Part shown: positions 986 to 64,000 of the stretch, one piece after another
How positions within the stretch are numbered: the first letter of the stretch is position 1
How the letters are laid out: each line of letters opens with the position of its first letter
Origin: an uncultured Hyphomicrobiales bacterium
GTDB lineage: Bacteria > Pseudomonadota > Alphaproteobacteria > Reyranellales > JAQSWP01
NCBI GenBank assembly: GCA_964388115.1
Contig: CAYLYK010000001.1
Location: 1,001,205-1,065,204, forward strand
DNA length: 64,000 nt
Reading direction: 5' to 3'
Program-made: the position numbers and the translations under genes
The notes under the pieces: generated by a model
Seen by the model: only the letters and a program-made list of their open reading frames with translations
Told to the model about the DNA's origin: nothing
The model's database searches: none

Positions 986-2209
986 CTATTCGGCTGCCGC
1001 ACGCAGCAGCCCCAGCCGACCCCAGATGTCAGTCAGCGCCTGCAGCAGGTCGGTCATCATGGCGTCCGTATGCAGGGGCGTCGGCGTCAGGCGCAGCCGC
1101 TCCGCGCCGCGCGGCACGGTCGGATAATTGATCGGCTGAACATAAATGCCGTGGCGTTCCAGCAGCAGGTCGCTGGCCAGCTTGCAGCGATCGGCATCGC
1201 CTACGAAAAGCGGCACGATATGGCTGTCGGACGGCATGACCGGGAGGCCTGCGGCAGCCAGCTTGCGTTTCAACGTGGCGGCCCGCTCCTGATGGCGGTC
1301 GCGGATCTCGGGGTGCCGGCGCAGATGGCGCACGCTGGCGAGCGCGCCGGCGGCGATCGATGGCGGCAGGGCGGAGGTGAAGATGAAGCCCGCACCGAAG
1401 CTGCGCACGAAATCGACCAACTCGCTGCTCGACGCGATATAGCCGCCAATGACGCCGAAAGCTTTGGCCAGCGTGCCTTGCACCAGATCGACCTTGTCGA
1501 GCACGCCGTCGCGCTCGGCCACGCCAGCGCCCTGGGCGCCATACATGCCGACCGCGTGTACCTCGTCGAGATAGGTCAGCGCGCCGTAGCGATGGGCGAC
1601 ATCGCACAATTCGCCGATGGGCGAGATGTCGCCATCCATCGAATAGACGGACTCAAAGGCCACTATCTTGGCGGCTTCGGGATCGGCTTGGCGCAGCAGG
1701 CGCTCCAGGTCGGCCGCATCGTTATGCCGGAAGATATGCCGCTTGGCGCCGGAGTGTCGGATGCCGGCGATCATCGAGGCATGGTTCAGCGCATCCGAGA
1801 AGATGATGCAGTTGGGCAGTTTGCTGCCCAGAGTCTGCAGCGCGGTTTCGTTGGCGACATAACCTGACGTAAATACCAGCGCCGCTTCCTTGCCATGCAG
1901 ATCGGCCAGTTCGCGCTCCAGCAGCACGTGATTGTGGTTGGTGCCGGAAATGTTGCGCGTGCCGCCCGCGCCGGCGCCGGAAACTTCCAGGGCCTGCCGC
2001 ATGGCGTTCAGCACGACTTCGTGCTGGCCCATGCCCAAATAGTCGTTGGAGCACCAGACGGTGACTTTCTCGACCTTGCCGTCGCGATGGTTGCGGGCGA
2101 AGGGGAAATTGCCGACCTCACGCTCGAGATCGGCGAAGACGCGATAGCGGCCTTCTGCCTGCAATTGCTCGAGCGAGCGGCGGAAAAAACTTTGATAGTC
2201 CATTGTCAT
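986..2209 (-). CDS. hemA: 5-aminolevulinate synthase
   Basis: 407 aa. [14 protein letters not shown]...[13 protein letters not shown]...[11 protein letters not shown]...SVYSMDGD is the typical alphaproteobacterial ALAS / alpha-oxoamine synthase PLP pattern. Confidence 0.95.
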
Positions 2210-2270
2210 CCCAATGCGGCTGACTGAACGGGCCGCACCGCATGAGTATCAACTCAGTCCCCGGTAGTCC

Positions 2271-2284
2271 TTGATTTATATCAA
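2271..2284. promoter_or_regulatory. FNR/FixK-type anaerobox TTGATTTATATCAA (TTGAT-N4-ATCAA, perfect palindrome)
   Basis: Read directly in the hemA/MFS divergent intergenic region. Its centre is about 68 nt upstream of the hemA ATG (2209). Confidence 0.6.
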
Positions 2285-2298
2285 GAAGTTTCGTTCCT

Positions 2299-3576
2299 AT
2301 GGGTGGCGCATTGCCGCATGGCTGCGCTTCCAGAAATAGACAGATTGAGCCTGTCATTATTCCCGATAATCCCCCCGTGAACCGACAATTCCCGTTTTAT
2401 CTCGGTAGCTTGGGCGCCTGGTACGGCGGGCTCGGCCTGCAGTTCGTCATGTTTCCCTGGCTGGTGGCGGTGGTGCTGCAAGCACCTGCCCATCTGGTGG
2501 GCATCGCCCAGACCGCGCTGATGGCGCCCTCGATCCTGTTCATTCTGCTGGGCGGGGCGGTCGCGGACCGCAACGACGGTCGCCGACTGCTGATCCGCTA
2601 TCATCTTCTCTGCGCCGTCCCGCCTCTGGCCCTGGCCGGAGTTATTGGCACGGGCAATCTCAGCTTCGCCGCGGTGGTGATTTTCGGCCTGGCCATGGGC
2701 ACGCTGGGCGCCTTCGCCATGCCCGCGCGCGATGCGCTGCTGGGCCACGTCGCCGGAACCAACATTGCCCGCGCCGTGGCCGTCGTGACCGGCGTGCAGT
2801 TCCTCTCGCAGTTGATCGGCATGGTCGGGGCCAGCCAGGCGGAGGCGCTGGGCGCGCCGATGCTGCTGGCCATCCAAGCCACGATCATGGCGTTGGGGGC
2901 GGCGGCCTGTTGGAAGCTTTTACCCGCGCCGCCACGTGCGCCGGCGGAGCAGAGCGGTCGCTTCGCCGCCATCGTCGAGGGCATGCGCGAGGCCTTCTCA
3001 ACCGCCAGCATCTGGCCGGTCATCGTCGCCATGCTGGGCATCGGCATCTTCTACATCGGCGCGTTCAACGTGCTACTGCCGGTGATGGCGCGCGACGATT
3101 ACGGCGGTGGCGCGCGCGAGATCGCCATGGTCAATTTCTTCTTCTGGGGCGGGGCGCTGGTCTCGATCTTTGCCCAGGTGCGGCTGGGGCAGTTGCGCCA
3201 TCCGGGCAAGGCGATGCTGGTGTCGCTCTTCCTCTCCGCCCTCGTGCTGATCGCCATGTCGCTGCGCCTGCCGTTCTATGGCTTGTGCGCGCTGTGCGCT
3301 GCCTGGGGCATCAGCGCCGGCATCAACATGACCCAGGGCCGCACCATCGTTCAGATGGCATCGCCGCCTTCGCACCGCGCGCGCATCCTGTCGCTATTCC
3401 AGCTCGGCTTCATGGGGGGCGCTCCGATCGGAACACTCCTCATCGGCTATCTCGCCGAGGCCACCGACGTGCACACCGCCTGCATCCCACCGGCGGTGGT
3501 CATGCTGGGCCTGCTGCTCTTCCTGCGCCTGCGCTCGCAGCTATGGCAGCACCGATCCGCCGATCTCAGCCTTTGA
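2299..3576 (+). CDS. MFS transporter (12-TM type); true start possibly the GTG at 2377
   Basis: Hydrophobic multi-TM sequence with an MFS-like loop (AVADRNDGRRLL). The first 26 codons look non-native. VNRQFPFYLGSL begins at 2377. Confidence 0.8.
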   Translation: MGGALPHGCASRNRQIEPVIIPDNPPVNRQFPFYLGSLGAWYGGLGLQFVMFPWLVAVVLQAPAHLVGIAQTALMAPSILFILLGGAVADRNDGRRLLIRYHLLCAVPPLALAGVIGTGNLSFAAVVIFGLAMGTLGAFAMPARDALLGHVAGTNIARAVAVVTGVQFLSQLIGMVGASQAEALGAPMLLAIQATIMALGAAACWKLLPAPPRAPAEQSGRFAAIVEGMREAFSTASIWPVIVAMLGIGIFYIGAFNVLLPVMARDDYGGGAREIAMVNFFFWGGALVSIFAQVRLGQLRHPGKAMLVSLFLSALVLIAMSLRLPFYGLCALCAAWGISAGINMTQGRTIVQMASPPSHRARILSLFQLGFMGGAPIGTLLIGYLAEATDVHTACIPPAVVMLGLLLFLRLRSQLWQHRSADLSL

Positions 3577-4957
3577 ATTCGCCCGCCGCGCGCAGATCGG
3601 CAAGCGTCAGATCGAGCGCCTTGGTCACGCGGACGAACATCTCGTCGATGTCGGCCACGGTCATCACCAGCGGCGGCGAGAAGGCGATGGAATCGCCCAT
3701 GTTGCGCTGGATCAGGCCGTTGTTCTGAGCGTGCTTGGCAACGAGGCCACCCGCGCCGGCGGCGACGGGGAAGGCCTCGCGACTCTTCTTGTTCTTCACC
3801 ATCTCAACGGCGCCGATCATGCCTATGCCGCGCACCTCGCCGATCAGCGGATGCTCGCCCAGCTTGCGCAAGCCCGCCTGCATGACCGGCCCGACCTTGC
3901 GAACATGCCCAACCAAATCGATCTCGTCGTAGATTTTCAGCGTCTCGCAGGCGACAGCGGCCGGCACAGGGTGGCCTGAATAGGTATAGCCATGCCCGAA
4001 CGTGCCGATCTTTTCGCTTTCCAGAAGCATCGCCTGCCATATCTTCTCATTCACCATCACCGCCGAAATCGGCAGGAACGAGGCCGATAGCGCCTTGGCG
4101 CAGGTCAGGATGTCCGGCTTGATGTCGAAAGTCTGGCAGCCCCAGTAATTGCCGGTGCGGCCGAAGCCGCAGATCACTTCGTCGGCAATGAACAGCACGT
4201 CGTGCTTCTTCAACACCGCCTGGATCTTTTCGTAATACGTGGCGGGCGGCACGATGACGCCGCCGGCGCCCATCACTGGCTCGGCGATGAAGGCGGCGAC
4301 GGTTTCGGGGCCTTCTCGCTGGATCATCGCATCGAGCGACTCGGCCAGGCGCGTGGCGAACTGCTCCTCCGTCTCGCCCGGCTGGCCGAAGCGATAGAAG
4401 TGCGGGCAGTCGGTGTGCAGCACATTGGCAATCGGCAGATCGAAGTCGCGATGGTTGTTGGGCAGACCGGTCATGCTGGCCGCGGCGATGGTGACGCCGT
4501 GATAGCCCTTGATGCGCGAGATGACTTTCTTCTTCTTCGGCCGGTCGAGCGCGTTGTTGTAGTACCAGACCAGCTTCAGCGCGCTGTCGTTGGCTTCCGA
4601 GCCGGAATTGGCGAAGAACACGCGGGCCATGGGGGCCGGGGCGCGCTTCAACAGCATTTCGGCCAATTCGATCATCGGCTCGTGCGATTTGCTGGCGAAG
4701 CCATGATAGAAGGGCAACTGCCGCATCTGCTTCAATGCTGCCTGAACCAGCCGCTCGTTGTCGAAGCCGAGCGAGGCGCTCCACAGACCGGCCATGCCCT
4801 CGAGATAGTCGTTGCCCGAATCGTCGTAGACCCGGACGCCTTTGCCGCGGGCGATGACCAGCGGACCTTCCGTCAGATGCTTCTTCAACTGGGTGTAGGG
4901 ATGGACGACCGAGGCGATGTCGCGCGCCTGCAGCGAGTTGGGAGCGTTGTGAGTCAC
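3566..4957 (-). CDS. Class-III (omega) aminotransferase, PLP-dependent
   Basis: GLWSASLGF, FANSGSEANDSALK and ADEVICGFGRTG motifs. I place the start at GTG 4957, preceded by AAGGAG at 6-nt spacing. The ORF-track start at 5125 adds an implausible leader. Confidence 0.9.
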   Translation of the reverse strand: MTHNAPNSLQARDIASVVHPYTQLKKHLTEGPLVIARGKGVRVYDDSGNDYLEGMAGLWSASLGFDNERLVQAALKQMRQLPFYHGFASKSHEPMIELAEMLLKRAPAPMARVFFANSGSEANDSALKLVWYYNNALDRPKKKKVISRIKGYHGVTIAAASMTGLPNNHRDFDLPIANVLHTDCPHFYRFGQPGETEEQFATRLAESLDAMIQREGPETVAAFIAEPVMGAGGVIVPPATYYEKIQAVLKKHDVLFIADEVICGFGRTGNYWGCQTFDIKPDILTCAKALSASFLPISAVMVNEKIWQAMLLESEKIGTFGHGYTYSGHPVPAAVACETLKIYDEIDLVGHVRKVGPVMQAGLRKLGEHPLIGEVRGIGMIGAVEMVKNKKSREAFPVAAGAGGLVAKHAQNNGLIQRNMGDSIAFSPPLVMTVADIDEMFVRVTKALDLTLADLRAAGEFKG

Positions 4958-55135: not shown

Positions 55136-55451
55136 TCTCTCCACTCCCCGATCTCGACCGTCTTTTTTTGGGAAGGCATGCTTGGCTGAGGCCAAAGCTG
55201 CCTTTTCCCAATTTGCGGTGATTGGGCGTTTACGCCTTGATCGTCTGATTCGCCGGGCAGAATAGCGATCCAATCCAAGGTTGCCAACTGTTACCGGACC
55301 TGAATTTCCGTGAATACCAAAGGCGGTGCTGCTCGAAATTCATGCAGTCCTGCGTTGCGATAGGCGAGGATGGCTTGCGGAACGCCGGCATGGCAGGATA
55401 TTCAGGCAAATAACGGGCATCGGGCAACGATGCCATTTCGGGAGAACGCCA

Positions 55452-56420
55452 ATGATCACGCGGCGAAACTTCGTCGTCGGCTCTGCAGCCGCAGCCACCG
55501 CAATTTCCACCTCGCGCTGGGCTTCAGCTCAGGAAATCGACCTGCTCAAGCTGTTCGTGCCGGCAGCGCCAGGCGGCGGCTGGGATCAGACCGCGCGTGC
55601 CATCGAGCAGGCCATGCGCGGCGCCAATCTGATCAAGGGCGCGCAGGTGACCAATGTCGCCGGCGCCGGTGGCGCAGTGGGGTTGCCGCAATTCGTCAAT
55701 CAGTGGAAGGGCCAGAGCAACGCCATGATGGTGGCGGGCATGGTCATGGTTGGCGCGCTCATCGCCAACAAGAGCACCACCAAGCTCACGCAGACGACGC
55801 CGATCGCGCGTCTTACCGGCGAGTTCCAGGCGCTGGTGGTGCCGGCGCAATCGCCGATCAAGAGCGCGAAGGAGTTCGCGGCGGCCTTGAAAGCCGATCC
55901 TACGAAAGTACCGGTGGCCGGCGGTTCCGCGGGTGGCACCGATCACATCATGCTGGGGATGATCGCCCAGGCCGTCGGCGTCGATCCCGCCAAAGTGAGC
56001 TATGTCGCCTTCTCGGGCGGCGGGCCGGCCATCGCCGCGCTGCTGGGCAACCAGGTTGCCGGCGGCATTTCCGGATACGGCGAATTCGGCGAGCAGATCA
56101 AGGCCGGCAAATTGCGATTGCTGGCGATCTCCGCGGACAAGCGGCAGGCCGGTATCGATGCGCCGACACTGAAGGAAGAGGGCATCGACGTCGTGCTGTT
56201 CAACTGGCGCGGCGTGTTCGCTCCACCCGGCGTCAGCGATGTGCAGCGCAATGAAATGGTGACGCTGGTGCAGAAGATGGCGGCGACGCCGCAATGGGCG
56301 GAAATCTGCAAGGCGCGCGACTGGACGCAGATCACTATGGTCGGCGATGACTACAGAAAGTTCCTCGACTCCGAGACCACGCGGATTGAAGCAATTCTGA
56401 AATCGCTCGGCCTGGCCTGA
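55452..56420 (+). CDS. tctC: Tripartite tricarboxylate transporter substrate-binding protein (Bug/TctC family)
   Basis: Tat-like leader MITRRNFVVGSAAAA. VPAAPGGGWDQTARA and GGSAGGTDH motifs. RBS GGGAGAA. Confidence 0.88.
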   Translation: MITRRNFVVGSAAAATAISTSRWASAQEIDLLKLFVPAAPGGGWDQTARAIEQAMRGANLIKGAQVTNVAGAGGAVGLPQFVNQWKGQSNAMMVAGMVMVGALIANKSTTKLTQTTPIARLTGEFQALVVPAQSPIKSAKEFAAALKADPTKVPVAGGSAGGTDHIMLGMIAQAVGVDPAKVSYVAFSGGGPAIAALLGNQVAGGISGYGEFGEQIKAGKLRLLAISADKRQAGIDAPTLKEEGIDVVLFNWRGVFAPPGVSDVQRNEMVTLVQKMAATPQWAEICKARDWTQITMVGDDYRKFLDSETTRIEAILKSLGLA

Positions 56421-56422
56421 CC

Positions 56423-56950
56423 ATGCCGAGCGGCGCCGAGCGATCGGGGGTTCGCTTTGGCGAGCTGGCGGTGGCGCTGGGCGTGCTGGCGTTGGCGGTC
56501 GTCGTCTTTTGGCAGACCGAGGCGATACCTATCTCGCCGATCTACGCCAAGGTAGGCCCCACCGTCATGCCGACCATCGCTGCGGGTGGCCTAGCGTTGC
56601 TGTCGCTTGTCCTGATCGTCTCGGCCGTTCGTGGCGGCTGGCAGAGCGAGGAAGAGCGCGAGACAAAACCTGACTATGTCGCGCTTCTGTGGGTGATCGC
56701 CGGACTGGCGTTGAACGTGCTGCTGATAAACCGCGTCGGTTTCACCCTGGCCTCGATCGTTCTCTTCGTCTGCGTCACGCGCGGCTTCGGTTCGCGCCGT
56801 ATCCTGCTCAATGCCGCGATCGCCGCTGCCTTCGCGCTTGTGGCCTATTTCGGTTTCGCCAAGACGCTGGGCATCAATATCGGCAGTGGTCTTGTCGAGA
56901 ACGCGGTGGAGCAGGGCTTCCGCCATATATACGGGCTGGTGGTGGGCTGA
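56423..56950 (+). CDS. tctB: Tripartite tricarboxylate transporter TctB-family small membrane protein
   Basis: 175 aa with 4 TM segments. Position between tctC and tctA. Confidence 0.75.
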
Positions 56951-56951
56951 C

Positions 56952-58490
56952 ATGAACGCTTTCGACTCGTTCGAGTATATCGCCTATGAATTTGTAAACT
57001 CACTCGATCAGCTTCTCGGCGGGCTCGCCACTGCCCTGACGCTGAATAATCTCCTGTGGGCCCTGCTGGGCACCACGCTGGGCACCGCCATAGGCGTGCT
57101 GCCCGGGCTGGGGCCGGCATTGACCATTGCCCTGCTGCTGCCGATCACTTATTCGGTCGAGCCGACGGCGGCCTTCATTCTCTTCGCCGGCATCTATTAC
57201 GGCGCCATGTATGGCGGCTCGACCACGTCGATCCTGCTCAACACGCCGGGGGAAAGCGCAACCATTGTCACCGCGCTGGAAGGCAACAAGATGGCGCGCA
57301 ACGGCCGCGCCGGCGCGGCGCTGGCGACGGCGGCCGTCGGCTCCTTTGTCGCTGGTACGCTGGGCACGCTCGGCATCGCGTTCCTGGCGCCTTTCGTGGT
57401 CGTGTTCGCCTTGAAATTCGGACCCGCCGATTATTTCTCCCTGATGGTTTTGGCCTTCGTCACAGCCTCGGCTGTCCTGGGGTCGTCGATGATCCGCGGG
57501 CTGGCAGCCTTATTCTTTGGTATCTGGCTGGGGTTGATCGGCGTCGATCTCCAGACCGGGCAACCGCGATTCAGTTTTGGCCTTGACGAATTGCTCGACG
57601 GAATCAACGTCATCATCGTCGCAGTGGGATTATTCGCGGTCGGTGAAACGCTTTACGTCGCCTCCCGTCATCGCCATGGCAAGGACCAGCTCGTGCCTTT
57701 GCGCGGCTCGCTATGGATGACAAAGGAAGAGTGGAAACGCTCTTGGGGACCGTGGCTGCGCGGCACGGCGATCGGCTTTCCGATCGGCGCCATGCCTGCA
57801 GGCGGCGCCGAGATTCCGACTTTCCTCAGCTATTACGCAGAGCGCAAGCTGACCTCGAAGCCGGAGGAGTTCGGACACGGCGCCATCGAAGGCGTGGCGG
57901 GACCGGAAGCCGCCAACAACGCGTCAACCGCCGGCGTTCTCGTGCCAATGCTGACGCTTGGCCTTCCCACCTCGGCCACGGCAGCCATCATGCTCTCGGC
58001 GTTCCAGAGCTACGGCATCAATCCAGGACCGCTGCTGTTCCAGACGCAGTCGGCCCTCGTGTGGACGCTGATCGCTTCGCTGGTGATCGGCAACGCGATG
58101 CTGCTGGTGCTGAACCTGCCGCTGATCGCCGTCTGGGTGCAGCTGCTGAAGATCCCGGCACCACAGCTCTATGCTGGCATCCTGATCTTCGCCACCATCG
58201 GCACCTATGGCATCACCCAATCGCCGATCGATCTGTTGCTGCTCTATGTCATCGGCGGCATCGGCTATCTGATGCGGCGCTACGATTTTCCCACCGGGCC
58301 GGTGATCATCGGCGTGATTCTGGGGCCGCTGGCGGAGCAGAATTTCCGCCAGGCGATGACCATTTCGGCCGGCGACTGGACGGTGTTCTTCAGCCGAGGC
58401 CTTTCATTGTCGCTTCTGGTCTTGTCGGCTTTGGCCATCGTCGGTCCATTTCTCTATCGACTCATCAAAGCATCACGTCGCCGAAGCTAG
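56952..58490 (+). CDS. tctA: Tripartite tricarboxylate transporter permease TctA
   Basis: [21 protein letters not shown]...[18 protein letters not shown]... is the typical TctA pattern. The ATG at 56952 is 1 nt after the tctB stop. Confidence 0.9.
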
Positions 58491-58529: not shown

Positions 58530-59417
58530 ATGAACCCGCTCGATCCGTCCATCGGTCCCACGTCACGCACCTATTTCTCGCAGCGCCTGCGCCTGCACTA
58601 TGTCGACTGGGGCAACCCATCGGCGCCACCGCTGCTTTTGATCCATGGCGGGCGCGACCACTGCCGCAATTGGGATTGGATGGCGGCGCGCCTGCGGAAG
58701 GACTGGCACGTCATCGCGCCCGATCTGCGCGGCCATGGCGACAGCCAGTGGTCGCCGGACGGCAACTACTCGATGTCGGGTTATATCTACGATCTGGCGC
58801 AGCTCATCCATCAGCAGAACCTGGCGCCGGTCACCATCGTGGCGCATTCGCTGGGTGGCAACATCGCCATCCGCTATGCCGGCATCTACCCCGAGAACGT
58901 GCGCAAGCTGGTCGCCATCGAGGGGCTGGGGCCGTCGCCCAAGATGATGGCGGAGCGGATGCGCAAGACGATCGGCGAGCGCATGCGCGAGTGGATCGAC
59001 GAGAATCGCGGCCTTGCCGGGCGCCAGTCGCGCCGCTACGCCTCGATCGAGGACGCCTTCAAGCGCATGCAGGAGGAGAACAAGCATCTCTCGCCCGAGC
59101 AGGCGCGGCATCTGACGCAGCACGGCGTCAGCCAGAACGAGGATGGCACCTACAGCTGGAAGTTCGACAATTACGTGCGTGCCTGGCCGCCCTACGACAT
59201 GACCTACGAGGAGATTGAGTGGCTGTGGCGGCAGATTTCCTGCCCGACCCTGCTGGTCTACGGCAAGGAGAGCTGGGCATCCAATCCTGAAGCCGACGGA
59301 AGAGCGAAACATTTCGCCAACGCCAGGGTGGTATCCTTCGAGCGCGCCGGACACTGGGTGCACCATGACCGGCTCGACGATTTCATGGCCGAGACGGTCG
59401 CTTTCATAAAAGACTAG
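58530..59417 (+). CDS. Alpha/beta-fold hydrolase
   Basis: LLLIHGGRDH (oxyanion region) and nucleophile elbow AHSLGG. C-terminal GHWVHHD. Confidence 0.85.
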   Translation: MNPLDPSIGPTSRTYFSQRLRLHYVDWGNPSAPPLLLIHGGRDHCRNWDWMAARLRKDWHVIAPDLRGHGDSQWSPDGNYSMSGYIYDLAQLIHQQNLAPVTIVAHSLGGNIAIRYAGIYPENVRKLVAIEGLGPSPKMMAERMRKTIGERMREWIDENRGLAGRQSRRYASIEDAFKRMQEENKHLSPEQARHLTQHGVSQNEDGTYSWKFDNYVRAWPPYDMTYEEIEWLWRQISCPTLLVYGKESWASNPEADGRAKHFANARVVSFERAGHWVHHDRLDDFMAETVAFIKD

Positions 59418-60076
59418 TATCGATCGGCGCTGGCGCGATCTGGCGCCCGGAACTGGCGAAGATCATTGGCGCGCATTTCGACCGCATCGCGACGGCGTAG
59501 CCGGCGCGCCTGGACCGGCGTGATCAGCCGGTAATGCGGCGCGTCGTCCAGTGCGCCGGCTACTTCCCAGCAATCGTCCTCGTTGCTGACCCACAGCGCC
59601 GGATCGAAGCGGCGCAAATCGATCGGCCGCGAATAGGTGCGCAAGGTCTTGCGATCACGCTTGGTGTATTCGTGGAAATACGACATCGCCAGTTCGCGCA
59701 GCGTGCGATAGACCGGATCGCGCCAGCGCAGCCAGACATGATTGCTCTTGGAAATGGCGCCCCAGCAGCCATCGCGCTTGAACAGCGCCACGATGTGATC
59801 GTCATCCTCGCGCGAGGCCTGGAAATCCATCAATAGCGGCCGCTCGCCGTTCAGCCACAATGCCAGGGCGGCGATGAAGGCGCCTTCGATGCAATGGGCG
59901 TGGTTGGCCTTCAGTGCATTGCGCACCGACAGGCAGGTGCCGCCGCTACGTTCGAAATTGGCAGGCAACGCTGCAACGAAATCCTGAATCTGCTCGGGTG
60001 TTTTCAGGCGCGCCAGAAGTCGTCGCTCGTCGGCGCTAAGCCCAAGACTGCTGGCGAGATCGTGGCGATTACTCAT
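59414..60076 (-). CDS. Hypothetical protein (220 aa); possible papain/transglutaminase-like Cys-His-Asp fold
   Basis: Start MSNRHDLASS. Candidate catalytic elements NHAHCIEGAFIAALAL and DDDHIVALFKRDGCWGAISKSN. No family recognised with confidence. Confidence 0.55.
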   Translation of the reverse strand: MSNRHDLASSLGLSADERRLLARLKTPEQIQDFVAALPANFERSGGTCLSVRNALKANHAHCIEGAFIAALALWLNGERPLLMDFQASREDDDHIVALFKRDGCWGAISKSNHVWLRWRDPVYRTLRELAMSYFHEYTKRDRKTLRTYSRPIDLRRFDPALWVSNEDDCWEVAGALDDAPHYRLITPVQARRLRRRDAVEMRANDLRQFRAPDRASADRY

Positions 60077-60129
60077 GACAAACGCATTACACCACGAATC
60101 GCGAAGTTTTGCGACCGTTGCGGGGGGCG

Positions 60130-61311
60130 TTATTCGCAACTGCGAGAGTCGTGTTTGCGCTGGTAAGGTCGGTTGTCCGACGCGACGCTGAGCGTGCGCA
60201 GGAAAGAGACCAGGTCGTCGATCTCCTGCGCGGAGAGTCTCAACGCGCGAATCAAATTCTCACCGTCCGAATGCACGCGATCGGGACTGACTTCGGAATA
60301 GTGGCGCACGACGTCGTGCAGCGTCGCCAGCGAGCCGTTGTGCATATAGGGCGCGGTCGTTTCGAGATTGCGCAGGCTCGGCACCTTGAACTCGCCCCAG
60401 TTGCGATGCTGCGGCGCGAGGTGTCGCGTGTGCACGGCATTGGCGCCCGTGGGGTCGTCGTTGAAGCGGCCCAATAGGCTGAACGGCGTTGCTCGCAACG
60501 TCATGATGCCGCCATGGCGGCCGGCATCGACCTTGCCCGGCGCGATGAAATGCGAAATGCCGGTGTCGCCGAATTCGCCGTTGGTGAAGGTCGGGCCGAA
60601 ATGGCAGAGCTGACAATCGCCCTTGCCGACGAAAACCTTCAGCCCGCGCCGCGCCGCTTCCGGATAGGCGATGTCGTCTTTTCCGTCCGCTAGCGCATCA
60701 CGGAAGTTGTCAAAAGCGGAACGGCTGCTGATGAGTGTTTCCTGAAAGGCGGCGATGGCCTTGGCTGCGTTGGCGGTCAAAGTCACGTCGTCGCCGCCGG
60801 AACCGCCGAAGACTTTGCCATAGCGGCAGGCGAGCGCCGTATCGGTGCGCAGGAGGGCGGCGACTTGCGCTTCGCTGGTGCCCATCTCGCGCGCATCGAG
60901 CAACGGTCTGATGGCGCTGGCCCACAGGCTGTCGCTGCCGCCATCCCAGCCGAACCAGCGATTGAAGCGTACGTTGAGCAGTCCGGGCGTATTGCGATCG
61001 ACGACTGTAACGCCTTGCGCCGTCTTCCTGCCGTCGCTCCAGCCGCGTTCGGGAATGTGGCAGGTGGCGCAGGCGACCTGGCCGTTCCCCGACAGTCGCG
61101 TGTCGAAGAAAAGAATCTCGCCCAGCGCGATGGCGTCGGCATTGCCGGAGACGCGATTGCCGGGGTCTTTCGGCATCGCCATTGGCCATGGTCCGTGGCT
61201 GACGATGCGGCGGATTTCCGCTGGCGAGAATTGTGTCGCCTGCTGCGCGCTGCCGCTGGTTGCCACGCCAAGGACGAGCAGCGAGAAGAACAGCAGGCGG
61301 CCAGGTCTCAT
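60130..61311 (-). CDS. Di-haem cytochrome c peroxidase / MauG-like enzyme
   Basis: Signal peptide MRPGRLLFFSLLVLGVATSGSA. Two haem c motifs, CATCH and CQLCH. Also PSLRN...APYMHNG. ATGA overlap with the upstream small gene. Confidence 0.88.
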   Translation of the reverse strand: MRPGRLLFFSLLVLGVATSGSAQQATQFSPAEIRRIVSHGPWPMAMPKDPGNRVSGNADAIALGEILFFDTRLSGNGQVACATCHIPERGWSDGRKTAQGVTVVDRNTPGLLNVRFNRWFGWDGGSDSLWASAIRPLLDAREMGTSEAQVAALLRTDTALACRYGKVFGGSGGDDVTLTANAAKAIAAFQETLISSRSAFDNFRDALADGKDDIAYPEAARRGLKVFVGKGDCQLCHFGPTFTNGEFGDTGISHFIAPGKVDAGRHGGIMTLRATPFSLLGRFNDDPTGANAVHTRHLAPQHRNWGEFKVPSLRNLETTAPYMHNGSLATLHDVVRHYSEVSPDRVHSDGENLIRALRLSAQEIDDLVSFLRTLSVASDNRPYQRKHDSRSCE

Positions 61312-61715
61312 TCGATCTCGATATCGGTGGTGACGCGCGCGGGACCGCCGGGCGCGCGCTGCTCGAAGGCGAGCTGCCACTTGCCGGGCATGTGGAACAT
61401 CATGCCCTCGGCGCGATAGGTGTTCGGGCCGATCGCGGCGATCGTCGGCTGGAAGTTCATGCCGTGGCGATGCGCCGGCATTGTGGCGTCGACGCGCAGG
61501 GTTTCCGGCATTGCCGGGCCGGCGCGATTGCAGACGGCGAACTCGACGGCGAAGAATTCTCCGATCTTCGGCTTCGCCGGCACAAAACGCCATGCGAGCG
61601 CAAAGCCTTTGTCGTCGCTAAGCGCGCGCGCCTGCTCGAGGATTGGCATCTGGCAGGCTAAGCTTTGAGCGGTGCCGGCCAGCAACAGGAAAATCGCTGC
61701 GAGGGCCAATCGCAT
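61308..61715 (-). CDS. Small secreted His/Met-rich protein (YtkA-like Ig-fold, tentative)
   Basis: Signal peptide MRLALAAIFLLLAGTAQSLA. Motifs DATMPAHRHGMN and AEGMMFHMPGKWQLAF resemble YtkA-like/metal-binding domains. Confidence 0.6.
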   Translation of the reverse strand: MRLALAAIFLLLAGTAQSLACQMPILEQARALSDDKGFALAWRFVPAKPKIGEFFAVEFAVCNRAGPAMPETLRVDATMPAHRHGMNFQPTIAAIGPNTYRAEGMMFHMPGKWQLAFEQRAPGGPARVTTDIEIE

Positions 61716-61716
61716 G

Positions 61717-62538
61717 TTATTTCGGCCCGATCTTCATGCCGGCGAACAGCGCCTCGAAGTTCTTGTAGGCGATGCGCTCGGCCAGATCCTGGGGCAGGTC
61801 GGCGAGCCAGGCACGCGACCATCTGGCGTGTTCTTCGATGTAGTACCAGCGCTCGGGCGTGAAGGTGTCGGTGCCGACCATGAAGCGGTCGGGAAATTCG
61901 ACGAAGGCCTCGCGCCATGCGGGGTCGACCTTGCCGCCGCTGCCGTGCTCGCTGCGGAAGGCGAGATCGGCCCAGAGCGTTTTGTATTTGCGCAGCATCT
62001 CGCGCACCTTGTCGGGCGCGGCAAAGCCGGAATGCGCCCACAGGATGCGCGCGTTGGGATTCTGCGCGAACAGTCTGTCGATGGCCTCTGCATCGGAATG
62101 CGCATGCAGGACTAGATTGTTGGCTTTGGCGATCTCGACGATGCGGCGCATGACGGGCGAATCGGCGTCGGCGCCATAGATGTGGAATTCGCCGATGCCG
62201 ACGTAATTGAACTTGGCGATGCGGTCCTGGATATGCGTGATCACCGTCTCGTCGCGGAACCAGGTGCCGAGCTCGCCGCGACTGCGATAGGGACGCAGCT
62301 CAGGCACGATGATGTCGGGCGCCTCGGCATAGAGCTTGAGTGTGCCGTCGTCGGACGAGCTCGACACCAGTGCCTTCTTCAGTCCGGCCTTGCGCAAAAC
62401 CGCGATCGCCTCCTTTGGCGGCAGCATGTCCCAGGCGTCGTGGCTATAATGGATATGCGCATCGATGACGGGTATGTCGGCCGCACGCGCGCTGGACAGC
62501 GCAAGAGCGGCGATGAAACAGGCGAGCAGAAAGCGCAT
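61717..62538 (-). CDS. Secreted TIM-barrel metal-dependent amidohydrolase (Amidohydro_2-like)
   Basis: Signal peptide MRFLLACFIAALALSSARA, then IPVIDAHIHY (HxH), LVLHAHSD, WAHSG and VGTDT. RBS GGGAGAA. The 538-aa ORF-track call is an upstream run-on. Confidence 0.8.
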   Translation of the reverse strand: MRFLLACFIAALALSSARAADIPVIDAHIHYSHDAWDMLPPKEAIAVLRKAGLKKALVSSSSDDGTLKLYAEAPDIIVPELRPYRSRGELGTWFRDETVITHIQDRIAKFNYVGIGEFHIYGADADSPVMRRIVEIAKANNLVLHAHSDAEAIDRLFAQNPNARILWAHSGFAAPDKVREMLRKYKTLWADLAFRSEHGSGGKVDPAWREAFVEFPDRFMVGTDTFTPERWYYIEEHARWSRAWLADLPQDLAERIAYKNFEALFAGMKIGPK

Positions 62539-62570
62539 CGGTTTCTCCCGAAAGGCGGACCCGCAGTTTA

Positions 62571-63263
62571 TCAGACCGCCCCGGTCCAACCCATGGCTTT
62601 CAGCGCCACAATCATGTGATCCGGCGGCGGGGCGATGATGGTGACTGGCGGTTTGCCGTCTTCGATCGGCACCGACACGGCGCGGGCGTGCAGCATCAAC
62701 GGCTCTGTAGGCGGGCGGGTTGGCCCATAGATCGGATCGCCGGCCACGGGGAACCCGAGCTCGGCGCAGTGGATACGGATCTGGTGCGTACGGCCGGTTT
62801 GGGGCGTCAACTCCAGCCAGCTTCGCTTGCCGTCGCTGCCGCGAAGCTTGTAATCGGTGCGCGCCGGTTGGCCGGTGGGATCGGGCACGATACGCCAGCC
62901 CTGTCGGCCGGTGACTTTCAGCAGCGGCATGTCGATGGTGCCGCTGTCGGAAGGCGGCTTTCCCTCGACGATAGCCCAGTAGGTCTTGCCGACCTTGTTG
63001 TTGGCGAACAGCTCGCCGAGCTTGCGCAGCGCTCGCTTGTTGCGACCCAGCACCAGGCAGCCGCTGGTGTCTCGGTCGAGTCGGTGGCCGAGCTGCGGCA
63101 GTTCCTTGTAGCCGAACTGCAGATGCGGCAGCAGCTGTTCGAGGCTCTCCTCGGTCTTCGGACCTTTGTGCACGGCAAGCCCGGCCGGCTTGTTCAAAAC
63201 CAGCAGCAGCTTGTCGCGATAGAGTACGCGCGCCTGAATTTCCGACGAGGATAACTGAGCCAT
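62571..63263 (-). CDS. RluA-family pseudouridine synthase
   Basis: LLLVLNKPAGLAVH...HRLDRDTSGCLVLGRN...TGRTHQIRIHCAELGFPVAGDPIYG. Confidence 0.88.
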   Translation of the reverse strand: MAQLSSSEIQARVLYRDKLLLVLNKPAGLAVHKGPKTEESLEQLLPHLQFGYKELPQLGHRLDRDTSGCLVLGRNKRALRKLGELFANNKVGKTYWAIVEGKPPSDSGTIDMPLLKVTGRQGWRIVPDPTGQPARTDYKLRGSDGKRSWLELTPQTGRTHQIRIHCAELGFPVAGDPIYGPTRPPTEPLMLHARAVSVPIEDGKPPVTIIAPPPDHMIVALKAMGWTGAV

Positions 63264-63377
63264 GGCCGGGACTTGGCCGCAAACCCATGCCCCGGTCAAC
63301 CCGGCTGTCATTGACCACATGCCGCCCGCGCACCTAGGCTGCAGCCAGTGCCCTTCTCCAGCCCTGCGAGCCCATAG

Positions 63378-64000
63378 ATGAAGATCGATCCCCGCATTGC
63401 CGCTTCCCATACCGAGCTGACCGATATCCGTCGCGACTTCCATGCCCATCCCGAGCTCGGCTACGAGGAGTTCCGCACCAGCGAGATCGTGGCGCGTAAG
63501 CTGAAGGAATATGGTTGCGACGTCGTCACCGGCATCGCCAAGACCGGCGTCGTCGGCACCATCCGGGTCGGCAATTCGCCGCGCGCCATCGGGTTGCGCG
63601 CCGACATGGACTGCCTGCCGATGGACGAGCTCAACACCTTTGCCCACAAATCCACGCATAAGGGGCGCATGCACGGATGCGGCCATGACGGGCACACCAC
63701 CATGCTGCTTGGCGCGGCCAAGTACCTGTCGGCGACGCGCAACTTCGAAGGCGCGGTGCATTTCTTCTTTCAGCCGGCGGAAGAGGGTGGTGGCGGCGGC
63801 CGCGTGATGGTCGAAGAGGGCTTGTTCGACAAATTTCCCTGCGAGTCGGTGTTCGGCATGCACAACCGGCCCAGCCTCCCGGTCGGCTCCTTCGCCGTAC
63901 GCAGCGGGCCGATGATGGCGGCGGCCGGCCGTTTCGACATCAACATCACGGGCAAAGGCACGCACGGGGCGCGGCCCGAGACCGGCATCGACCCGGTGCT
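63378..64000 (+). CDS. M20-family amidohydrolase (hippurate hydrolase-like), partial; paralogue of 12839-14032
   Basis: Open-ended and not in the ORF track. My translation from the ATG at 63378 gives MKIDPRIAASHTELTDIRRDFHAHPELGYEE...GLRADMDCLP...MHGCGHDGHTTMLLGAAKYL...FQPAEEGGGGG. Confidence 0.88.
   Translation, partial: MKIDPRIAASHTELTDIRRDFHAHPELGYEEFRTSEIVARKLKEYGCDVVTGIAKTGVVGTIRVGNSPRAIGLRADMDCLPMDELNTFAHKSTHKGRMHGCGHDGHTTMLLGAAKYLSATRNFEGAVHFFFQPAEEGGGGGRVMVEEGLFDKFPCESVFGMHNRPSLPVGSFAVRSGPMMAAAGRFDINITGKGTHGARPETGIDPV

Follow-up and report, generated by a model that had tools for sequence, protein, structure and literature searches.

Introduction

In the literature covered here, MauG-type di-haem enzymes with a known partner or activity are few, namely MauG, MbnH and BthA. 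What chiefly tells them from the canonical di-haem peroxidases is the residue that provides the second haem with its sixth ligand, a methionine in the canonical peroxidases and a tyrosine in the MauG-type enzymes; a Tyr-His haem of this kind is associated with enzymes that cannot reach the canonical stable half-reduced state and that form bis-Fe(IV) oxidants (PMC6405878). MbnH installs Kyn174 beside a His/Met copper site in its partner MbnP (PMC11951088), and the biological role of the MbnPH pair is unsettled. In this study we examined three adjacent minus-strand genes of an uncultured Hyphomicrobiales bacterium, encoding an amidohydrolase, a small protein rich in His and Met, and a di-haem protein, all carried on a 64,000-nucleotide stretch of contig CAYLYK010000001.1 (positions 1,001,205 to 1,065,204, hereafter the window). 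A first-pass annotation made from the letters alone had suggested that the small protein may be a substrate or partner of the di-haem enzyme. Our comparison supports the two as dedicated partners, adjacent in every testable locus compared and naturally fused in many others, and that the amidohydrolase is their frequent companion.

Both mopE and corA have di-haem genes as neighbours. MopE* and CorA of methanotrophs carry kynurenine-copper sites in other folds (PMC11951088), and in the MtoX-SCO1-MauG cluster a MauG homologue accompanies a copper enzyme, methanethiol oxidase (PMC5739008). These copper proteins have folds unrelated to that of the small protein described here, and neither an amidohydrolase nor a fusion is involved. 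CtaK, a YtkA protein, and the YtkA domain of YcnJ support CuA assembly in B. subtilis, and His as well as Met residues are conserved in CtaK (PMC9145763, PMC13344008). The proteobacterial homologues of YtkA were experimentally unstudied as of 2025 (PMC12362106). We found no description of the trio, or of a YtkA/di-haem pairing, in the searchable literature (the 2019 MbnH bioinformatics paper lies outside that coverage), which agrees with the first impression that this was not a described system. That paper reportedly places mbnPH-like genes in copper-regulated operons with copper-transport genes.

As in MbnH/MbnP (6e1c, 7l6g), an exported di-haem enzyme with a tyrosine at the position of MauG Tyr294 is encoded next to a small exported beta-rich partner, and this partner has candidate His/Met copper ligands and a conserved tryptophan. 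The locus differs from MbnH/MbnP in that the di-haem protein falls below the MbnH cut-off, the adjacent gene is of YtkA type and not mbnP (its 135-residue product has a YtkA fold and lacks both a match to MbnP and the WxW motif), the trio has no linked TonB-dependent transporter or other genes for copper uptake, and the pair usually comes with an amidohydrolase and is often fused. With MauG and preMADH the locus shares the di-haem scaffold and the tyrosine at the axial-ligand position, and by analogy one would expect oxidation of a tryptophan in the partner. Unlike in that system, the score lies below the MauG cut-off, no mau genes are found nearby and the partner is not a dehydrogenase subunit.

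The three genes are linked across genomes

When one genome per GTDB species was scanned with a pattern, 444 stretches, from as many species, were found to encode a relative of the small protein. Linkage was counted in the best 80 of these 444 loci, which come from Reyranellaceae-like Alphaproteobacteria and many Burkholderiales. In all 73 loci with enough DNA, the small gene was followed immediately by the di-haem gene in the same orientation, and an amidohydrolase gene preceded the small gene in 67 of the 74 testable loci, being absent beside the other seven pairs. This gene order was conserved across Alpha- and Betaproteobacteria. The linkage of the three genes is far beyond chance, and the conservation of the neighbourhood that the first-pass annotation had wanted checked is borne out.

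We also estimated the conservation of each component in the same 80 loci. At the median, the amidohydrolase was 67% identical to its counterpart in the window, the di-haem protein 55% and the small protein 47%. When we started instead from three amidohydrolase homologues, the full trio was present in all three cases, among unrelated housekeeping genes. The family is large, since a search of 1.8 billion representatives with the small-protein profile gave 3884 matches at E <= 1e-3 and 2056 (representatives of clusters at 50% identity) at E <= 1e-10. Clustering of all open reading frames in the 80 loci revealed no fourth conserved component, only background families (TctC/Bug, in 22 loci).

In loci where the amidohydrolase is missing, we considered a replacement for it, but the genes upstream of the pair were mutually unrelated (NIPSNAP, a substrate-binding protein, a Kelch-repeat protein and an alcohol dehydrogenase). 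The Kelch-repeat gene, which encodes a galactose-oxidase-like beta-propeller, lies directly upstream of the pair and on the same strand (L078, 6637-7776).

Natural fusions of the small protein and the di-haem enzyme

A protein of 495 residues (P0306) was found to match the small-protein profile and to have the small module joined straight to the mature N-terminus of the di-haem enzyme. With P0306 as the query, at least 120 further clusters were recovered, all of them single chains of 471-585 residues with HxHGMN and two CxxCH motifs, and none with a second signal peptide at the fusion junction. The fused proteins (P0306 and P0368-P0486, with a chain of ~490 residues) come mostly from uncultured Burkholderiales. 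The fusions are strong evidence that the small protein and the di-haem enzyme work in physical contact. Because adjacency is without exception and the fusions are so many, the two are supported as dedicated partners, and in this the suggestion of a partnership was right.

The amidohydrolase had a different fate in the loci with a fused gene. It was intact in L089 (fused gene at 1573-3060) and L090, and was split across two reading frames in L093 (4295-5034). In L091 and L092 (5001-6608), only its residues 22-83 were left, in frame with the fusion, giving a product of 535 residues that lacks C21 of the small protein. Since it is variable or decayed in such loci, we regard the amidohydrolase as an accessory. 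It had been proposed earlier that the exported amidohydrolase acts in the same process as the other two; its place ahead of the pair in most loci is in favour of this, while an obligatory part in the process is not borne out by the loci in which it is absent, decayed or missing.

The fused architecture brings up an alternative, namely that the YtkA-like module is a permanent domain of a stable haem-copper enzyme, where it would bind Cu(I) or a redox-active copper that exchanges electrons with the haems. Possible activities would be those of a peroxide-driven cuprous oxidase or detoxifier, or of a peroxidase fed electrons by copper. Having both modules in one chain is very common in the family, the unfused genes are translationally coupled, the pair survives the loss of the amidohydrolase, and the invariant His/Met set on a CrdA/CopC-like fold (see below) would suit the handling of Cu(I). 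A Tyr-His haem, however, goes with bis-Fe(IV) oxidants and not with a stable half-reduced state (PMC6405878), copper-resistance or regulator genes are not linked to the pair, and the invariant tryptophan beside the site is explained no better than by a maturation of the partner. We consider a stable haem-copper enzyme possible, but on balance unlikely.

The di-haem enzyme resembles MauG and MbnH

The di-haem protein matched Pfam CCP_MauG (PF03150) with an E-value of 2e-41. It scored 169.5 bits against NCBIfam MbnH (TIGR04039) and 169.3 bits against NCBIfam MauG (TIGR03791), far under the curated cut-offs of 362.85 and 443.85, respectively. Its best match in the PDB, over the full length, was 6e1c (E 5.5e-30, 107.7 bits), which outranked the canonical peroxidases and MauG. 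We take 6e1c to be the Methylosinus MbnH, the database label reading 'Di-heme enzyme' only. Both haem-binding motifs that had been read earlier, CATCH and CQLCH, are present.

The discriminating residue is Tyr338, in the motif VVRHYSE. In HMMER alignments it falls on Tyr294 of MauG (3rn0) and on a tyrosine of 6e1c, and on the methionine haem ligand of the canonical peroxidase 3o5c. All 120 fused homologues keep it, as do all but one of the 75 unfused ones. Judged by these alignments, the di-haem enzyme is MauG/MbnH-like and not a canonical peroxidase, which speaks against the firm grouping with canonical peroxidases that would have refuted the first-pass annotation. The methylamine dehydrogenase (mau) genes that would go with MauG itself were absent from the window region and from the related loci examined.

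Two other positions were compared. W122 lies in a GWDG motif, in a column with W in 56, L in 15 and H in 4 of the 75 family members; by comparison with the FWDG motif of canonical peroxidases, it is presumably the position of the inter-haem tryptophan of these peroxidases and MauG. Residue 132 (60916-60918) is a serine, where 62 of the 75 family members have glutamine; this is presumably the position of the distal-pocket Gln103 of MauG.

The homologues of the di-haem protein are labelled 'cytochrome c peroxidase' in the source databases, and the CCP_MauG match is clear. We therefore considered a canonical bacterial di-haem cytochrome c peroxidase, which would likewise have two CxxCH motifs and the CCP_MauG fold, and rejected it on account of Tyr338, which replaces the methionine ligand. 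That the protein should be an ordinary peroxide-detoxifying enzyme of this kind, with neighbours that are there by chance, is hardly credible in view of the same tyrosine, the unbroken linkage to the small gene and the many fusions.

The small protein has a YtkA fold and an invariant His/Met set

The small protein passed the gathering cut-off of Pfam YtkA (PF13115) narrowly (27.0 bits against 25.9), and 80 of 81 members of its family matched YtkA at E <= 0.01 (best E 1.8e-8). There was no NCBIfam match at E <= 0.1, and so no MbnP family match, and a PDB search with the small-protein profile gave zero matches. The AlphaFold2 model (predicted local distance difference test, pLDDT, 88) is an eight-stranded beta-sandwich, and its best Foldseek match in the PDB was H. 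pylori CrdA with bound silver (E 7e-4, target template modelling (TM) score 0.72). A DUF4426 protein came after it, and then the CopC-like domain of YcnJ, FtrA/P19, FetP and CopC, amid many weaker immunoglobulin-like matches; MbnP was absent from the top 50. CrdA is a periplasmic copper binder of the CopC family (PMC9182242).

Conservation was assessed in 81 homologues, 146 representatives of clusters at 50% identity and 120 fused proteins. We observed that C21, C62, M79, P80, H82, H84, G85, M86, N87, H108, M109, G111 and W113 are invariant or nearly so. The motifs and the two tryptophans pointed out earlier are all there: MMFHMPGKW corresponds to residues 105-113, and the tryptophans are W42 and W113. 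W42 is replaced by F or Y in most relatives, and W113 is the sole invariant tryptophan of the family, kept in 119 of 120 fused proteins, which makes it the candidate oxidation site. The strand topology of the model would place the loop 80-90 and the turn 107-110 at the same end of the sandwich, with H108 and W113 flanking a tight hairpin. C21 and C62 would lie at the opposite end and probably form a disulfide; no lipobox is consistently recognisable ahead of C21 among the family members.

A copper role for the small protein, raised in the first-pass annotation, is plausible because of the YtkA family match, CrdA as the closest fold and the invariant His/Met set, through which the protein would be a candidate copper binder. 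With CtaK and YcnJ it has in common the Pfam family PF13115, an extracytoplasmic location and conserved His/Met residues thought to bind copper. It differs from both in its Cys pair, its MPxHxHGMN motif and its obligate di-haem partner, and CtaK is, unlike it, a lipoprotein that works with Sco and has no haem-enzyme partner.

The likeness to CtaK suggests another possibility, that the small protein helps to assemble respiratory oxidases or other cuproenzymes as a copper chaperone of the CtaK/PCuAC kind, and that the di-haem enzyme merely maintains the redox state of the chaperone or of its copper. The YtkA match and the aid that CtaK and the YcnJ YtkA domain give to CuA assembly in B. subtilis (PMC13344008, PMC9145763) would agree with this. 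We found no cta, sco or cox genes linked in any locus examined, however, and C21 without a canonical lipobox and a haem partner that is always present do not resemble CtaK. A chaperone of this kind seems very improbable.

When we searched 72,556 plasmid and chromid records (PLSDB), only three matches to the small protein were obtained. They are distant genes of YtkA type, carried by replicons of Cereibacter azotoformans, Sinorhizobium fredii and Gemmatirosa kalamazoonensis. A CCP_MauG gene follows in each case, with a product that is 30-34% identical to the di-haem protein of the window and keeps the HY motif. In the small proteins of these pairs H108 is changed to T or N, H82, H84 and the tryptophan of MPGxW are kept, and the Cys pair is missing at least in that of Cereibacter. 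No amidohydrolase was found near the three pairs. A Sel1-repeat protein is encoded upstream of the Cereibacter pair, and the S. fredii small protein begins with a stretch, SSRRAVL, that resembles a twin-arginine export signal.

The exported amidohydrolase

The amidohydrolase matched Pfam Amidohydro_2 (PF04909) with an E-value of 1e-13 and 52.1 bits (cut-off 26.4), over residues 122-265 only. There was no NCBIfam match, no TatD match in either Pfam or NCBIfam, and no relative in PDB searches with the sequence or with a profile. The AlphaFold2 model (pLDDT 89) is an (alpha/beta)8 TIM barrel, and the best Foldseek matches in the PDB were the lactonase LigI and TatD. The candidate ligands H28, H30, E117, H145, H169 and D224 are invariant in 46 homologues.

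The pattern HxH/E/H/H/D is that of binuclear, Glu-bridged enzymes such as TatD and the phosphotriesterase-homology protein. The earlier assignment to an Amidohydro_2-type hydrolase stands as far as the Pfam match goes; the ligand set HxH, H, H and D given with it has to be extended by the glutamate. From its conserved residues, the enzyme is of the binuclear Glu-bridged type and not a typical mononuclear Amidohydro_2 member, the residues having been assigned to strands by inference. It is like TatD, the phosphotriesterase-homology protein and LigI, its nearest structural neighbours, in the barrel and in this pattern, and unlike them in that it is exported and tied to a di-haem/YtkA pair, the TM scores being only ~0.6. 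We conclude that it is a member of the superfamily outside every characterised subfamily.

These features could also be read as those of a periplasmic small-molecule pathway, in which the amidohydrolase would cleave a lactone, amide or ester, the haem/YtkA pair would oxidise the product or the precursor, and the small protein would bind or present it. The amidohydrolase is the best conserved component of the trio, it has kept every ligand of the binuclear set, the structures closest to it are those of LigI small-molecule lactonases and TatD-type hydrolases, and its family is very large, with more than 7000 matches in our search. On the other hand, the three sampled homologues all sat inside trios, with no sign of a separate role, the pair does without the amidohydrolase in several of the compared loci and in the distant lineages, and no transporter or catabolic genes are conserved near the trio in the loci compared. 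We judge such a pathway to be improbable.

Layout of the locus in the window

The coordinates of the genes and motifs are collected in Table 1. The three genes, the single-base spacer and the ATGA overlap described in the first-pass annotation were all confirmed in the sequence. The mechanical listing of open reading frames starts two of the genes further upstream (61717-63333 for the amidohydrolase and 60130-61593 for the di-haem gene). These extensions are read-through artefacts, as expected since the DNA is high in GC (~64% G+C), and the starts used before are the sensible ones. A GGGAGA stretch lies six bases ahead of the amidohydrolase ATG (62538).

The attachment of c-type haem needs export. 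A signal peptide had been predicted for all three products, and each of the N-termini does show, by eye, a basic residue, a hydrophobic stretch and a small-x-small cleavage site; in alignments, the homologues retain signal-peptide-like N-termini.

Table 1. Positions of the trio genes and of the motifs discussed in the text, together with the distant pairs on other replicons
Feature	Position	Strand	Details and basis
Amidohydrolase gene	61717-62538	-	273 residues; signal peptide ~residues 1-19 (by eye)
Small-protein gene	61308-61715	-	135 residues; signal peptide ~residues 1-20 (by eye)
Di-haem gene	60130-61311	-	393 residues; signal peptide ~residues 1-22 (by eye)
1-base spacer	61716	-	TAA (61717-61719)-c-ATG (61713-61715), amidohydrolase stop and small-protein start; read from the sequence
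ATGA overlap	61308-61311	-	small-protein stop TGA and di-haem start ATG; read from the sequence
HxH motif H28-I-H30 of the amidohydrolase, end of beta-strand 1	62449-62457	-	invariant alignment columns
Loop motif DATMPAHRHGMN (D76-A-T-M-P-A-H-R-H-G-M-N87) of the small protein, candidate metal ligands M79, H82, H84, M86	61455-61490	-	conservation
Hairpin-turn motif H108-M-P-G-K-W113 of the small protein, candidate ligands H108, M109, and W113	61377-61394	-	conservation, secondary structure of the model
First haem-binding motif C81-A-T-C-H85	61057-61071	-	read in the sequence; outside the tabulated alignment columns
Second haem-binding motif C233-Q-L-C-H237	60601-60615	-	C233, C236 and H237 each in 75/75 of the family alignment
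Tyr338, predicted axial ligand of the six-coordinate haem	60298-60300	-	alignment to solved structures
Distant YtkA/di-haem pairs	L094 3681-6403; L095 3608-5432; L096 ~2700-4450		replicons of Cereibacter azotoformans, Sinorhizobium fredii, Gemmatirosa kalamazoonensis

Upstream of the trio, an RluA-type pseudouridine synthase gene (62571-63254, minus strand) ends 32 nucleotides before the amidohydrolase ATG, so that read-through transcription into the trio is possible in the window; in other genomes the upstream gene is a different one or has the opposite orientation. A scan of 59300-63400 for promoters and terminators turned up no more than is obtained with shuffled sequence.

Downstream, at 54 nucleotides from the di-haem gene, lies a minus-strand gene for a protein of 220 residues (59414-60076), for which neither a signal peptide nor a match in Pfam or NCBIfam was found. 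We evaluated it as a further component and set it aside, as it is found behind the trio in the Reyranellaceae-like loci L004-L008 alone (75-86% identity). A copy that is 50% identical is present in the betaproteobacterial L012, upstream and on the other strand, and the gene of 220 codons downstream in L093 is unrelated to that of the window. Further away, three plus-strand open reading frames (55326-58490) are placed like a tripartite transporter, by eye a TctC/Bug-type binding protein and possible TctB and TctA membrane proteins. They are followed by an open reading frame of 295 residues (58530-59417) that looks, by eye, like an alpha/beta hydrolase.

A proposed mechanism and its weighing

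We tentatively favour, at a probability somewhat short of even, a system like MbnH/MbnP, the di-haem enzyme acting as the oxidant of a partner that carries a copper site; this rests on analogy with the known pairs. The trio would form a self-contained periplasmic cassette, built around a YtkA-fold His/Met site that is most likely for copper and an obligate di-haem partner with a Tyr-His haem. With H2O2 or O2 the di-haem enzyme would reach a high-valent state, and hole transfer would then oxidise the docked partner. The likeliest target would be Trp113, across the hairpin from His108 and beside the loop of H82, H84 and M86, and its oxidation would make or tune the copper site. The amidohydrolase would be a frequent and dispensable accessory, one role for which could be the hydrolysis of an oxidised-residue intermediate, for example the deformylation of N-formylkynurenine. 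Copper binding, tryptophan oxidation and the role of the amidohydrolase are what we infer here; the gene anatomy, the conserved linkage, the natural fusions, the tyrosine at the ligand position, the fold and the invariant residues are what the analysis shows.

Several points weigh against this proposal. In the model, W113 is on the strand face that also carries L115 and F117, so that it may be structural, as part of the protein core, or may cap the metal as in CusF. The MPGxW motif may also be a general feature of YtkA domains lacking a haem partner. Abundant permanent fusions suit a stable two-module enzyme better than a one-time modification of a substrate. The small protein has neither similarity to MbnP nor the WxW motif, its tryptophan standing in the context GKWQ. 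While mbnPH-like genes sit in copper-regulated operons with copper-transport genes (PMC9426467), no copper-homeostasis, copper-resistance or regulator genes were conserved near the trio in the loci compared. Finally, as the most conserved protein of the trio, the amidohydrolase would sooner be expected to act on an unchanging small molecule than on a partner protein that evolves fast, and it has been lost in some lineages.

Significance

The trio is widespread (444 GTDB species), unstudied and readily testable. It is also convenient for experiments, offering a candidate substrate of 115 residues, natural fusions and an unexplained exported metallohydrolase. In its most far-reaching form, which we regard as a long shot, the small protein would represent a fourth, structurally unrelated family of copper proteins, with a site built from an oxidised tryptophan (kynurenine or a related product) by a dedicated MauG-type enzyme that is often fused to its substrate. 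In that case, the amidohydrolase would be without known precedent as an enzyme that deformylates protein-bound N-formylkynurenine or otherwise hydrolyses the oxidised residue. Work on this system could show how protein-derived cofactors and copper sites arise outside the methanotrophs. It could also supply a first function for the YtkA-like proteins of Proteobacteria, and could link a reaction to an amidohydrolase subfamily that is very large and for which sequence searches find no solved relative.

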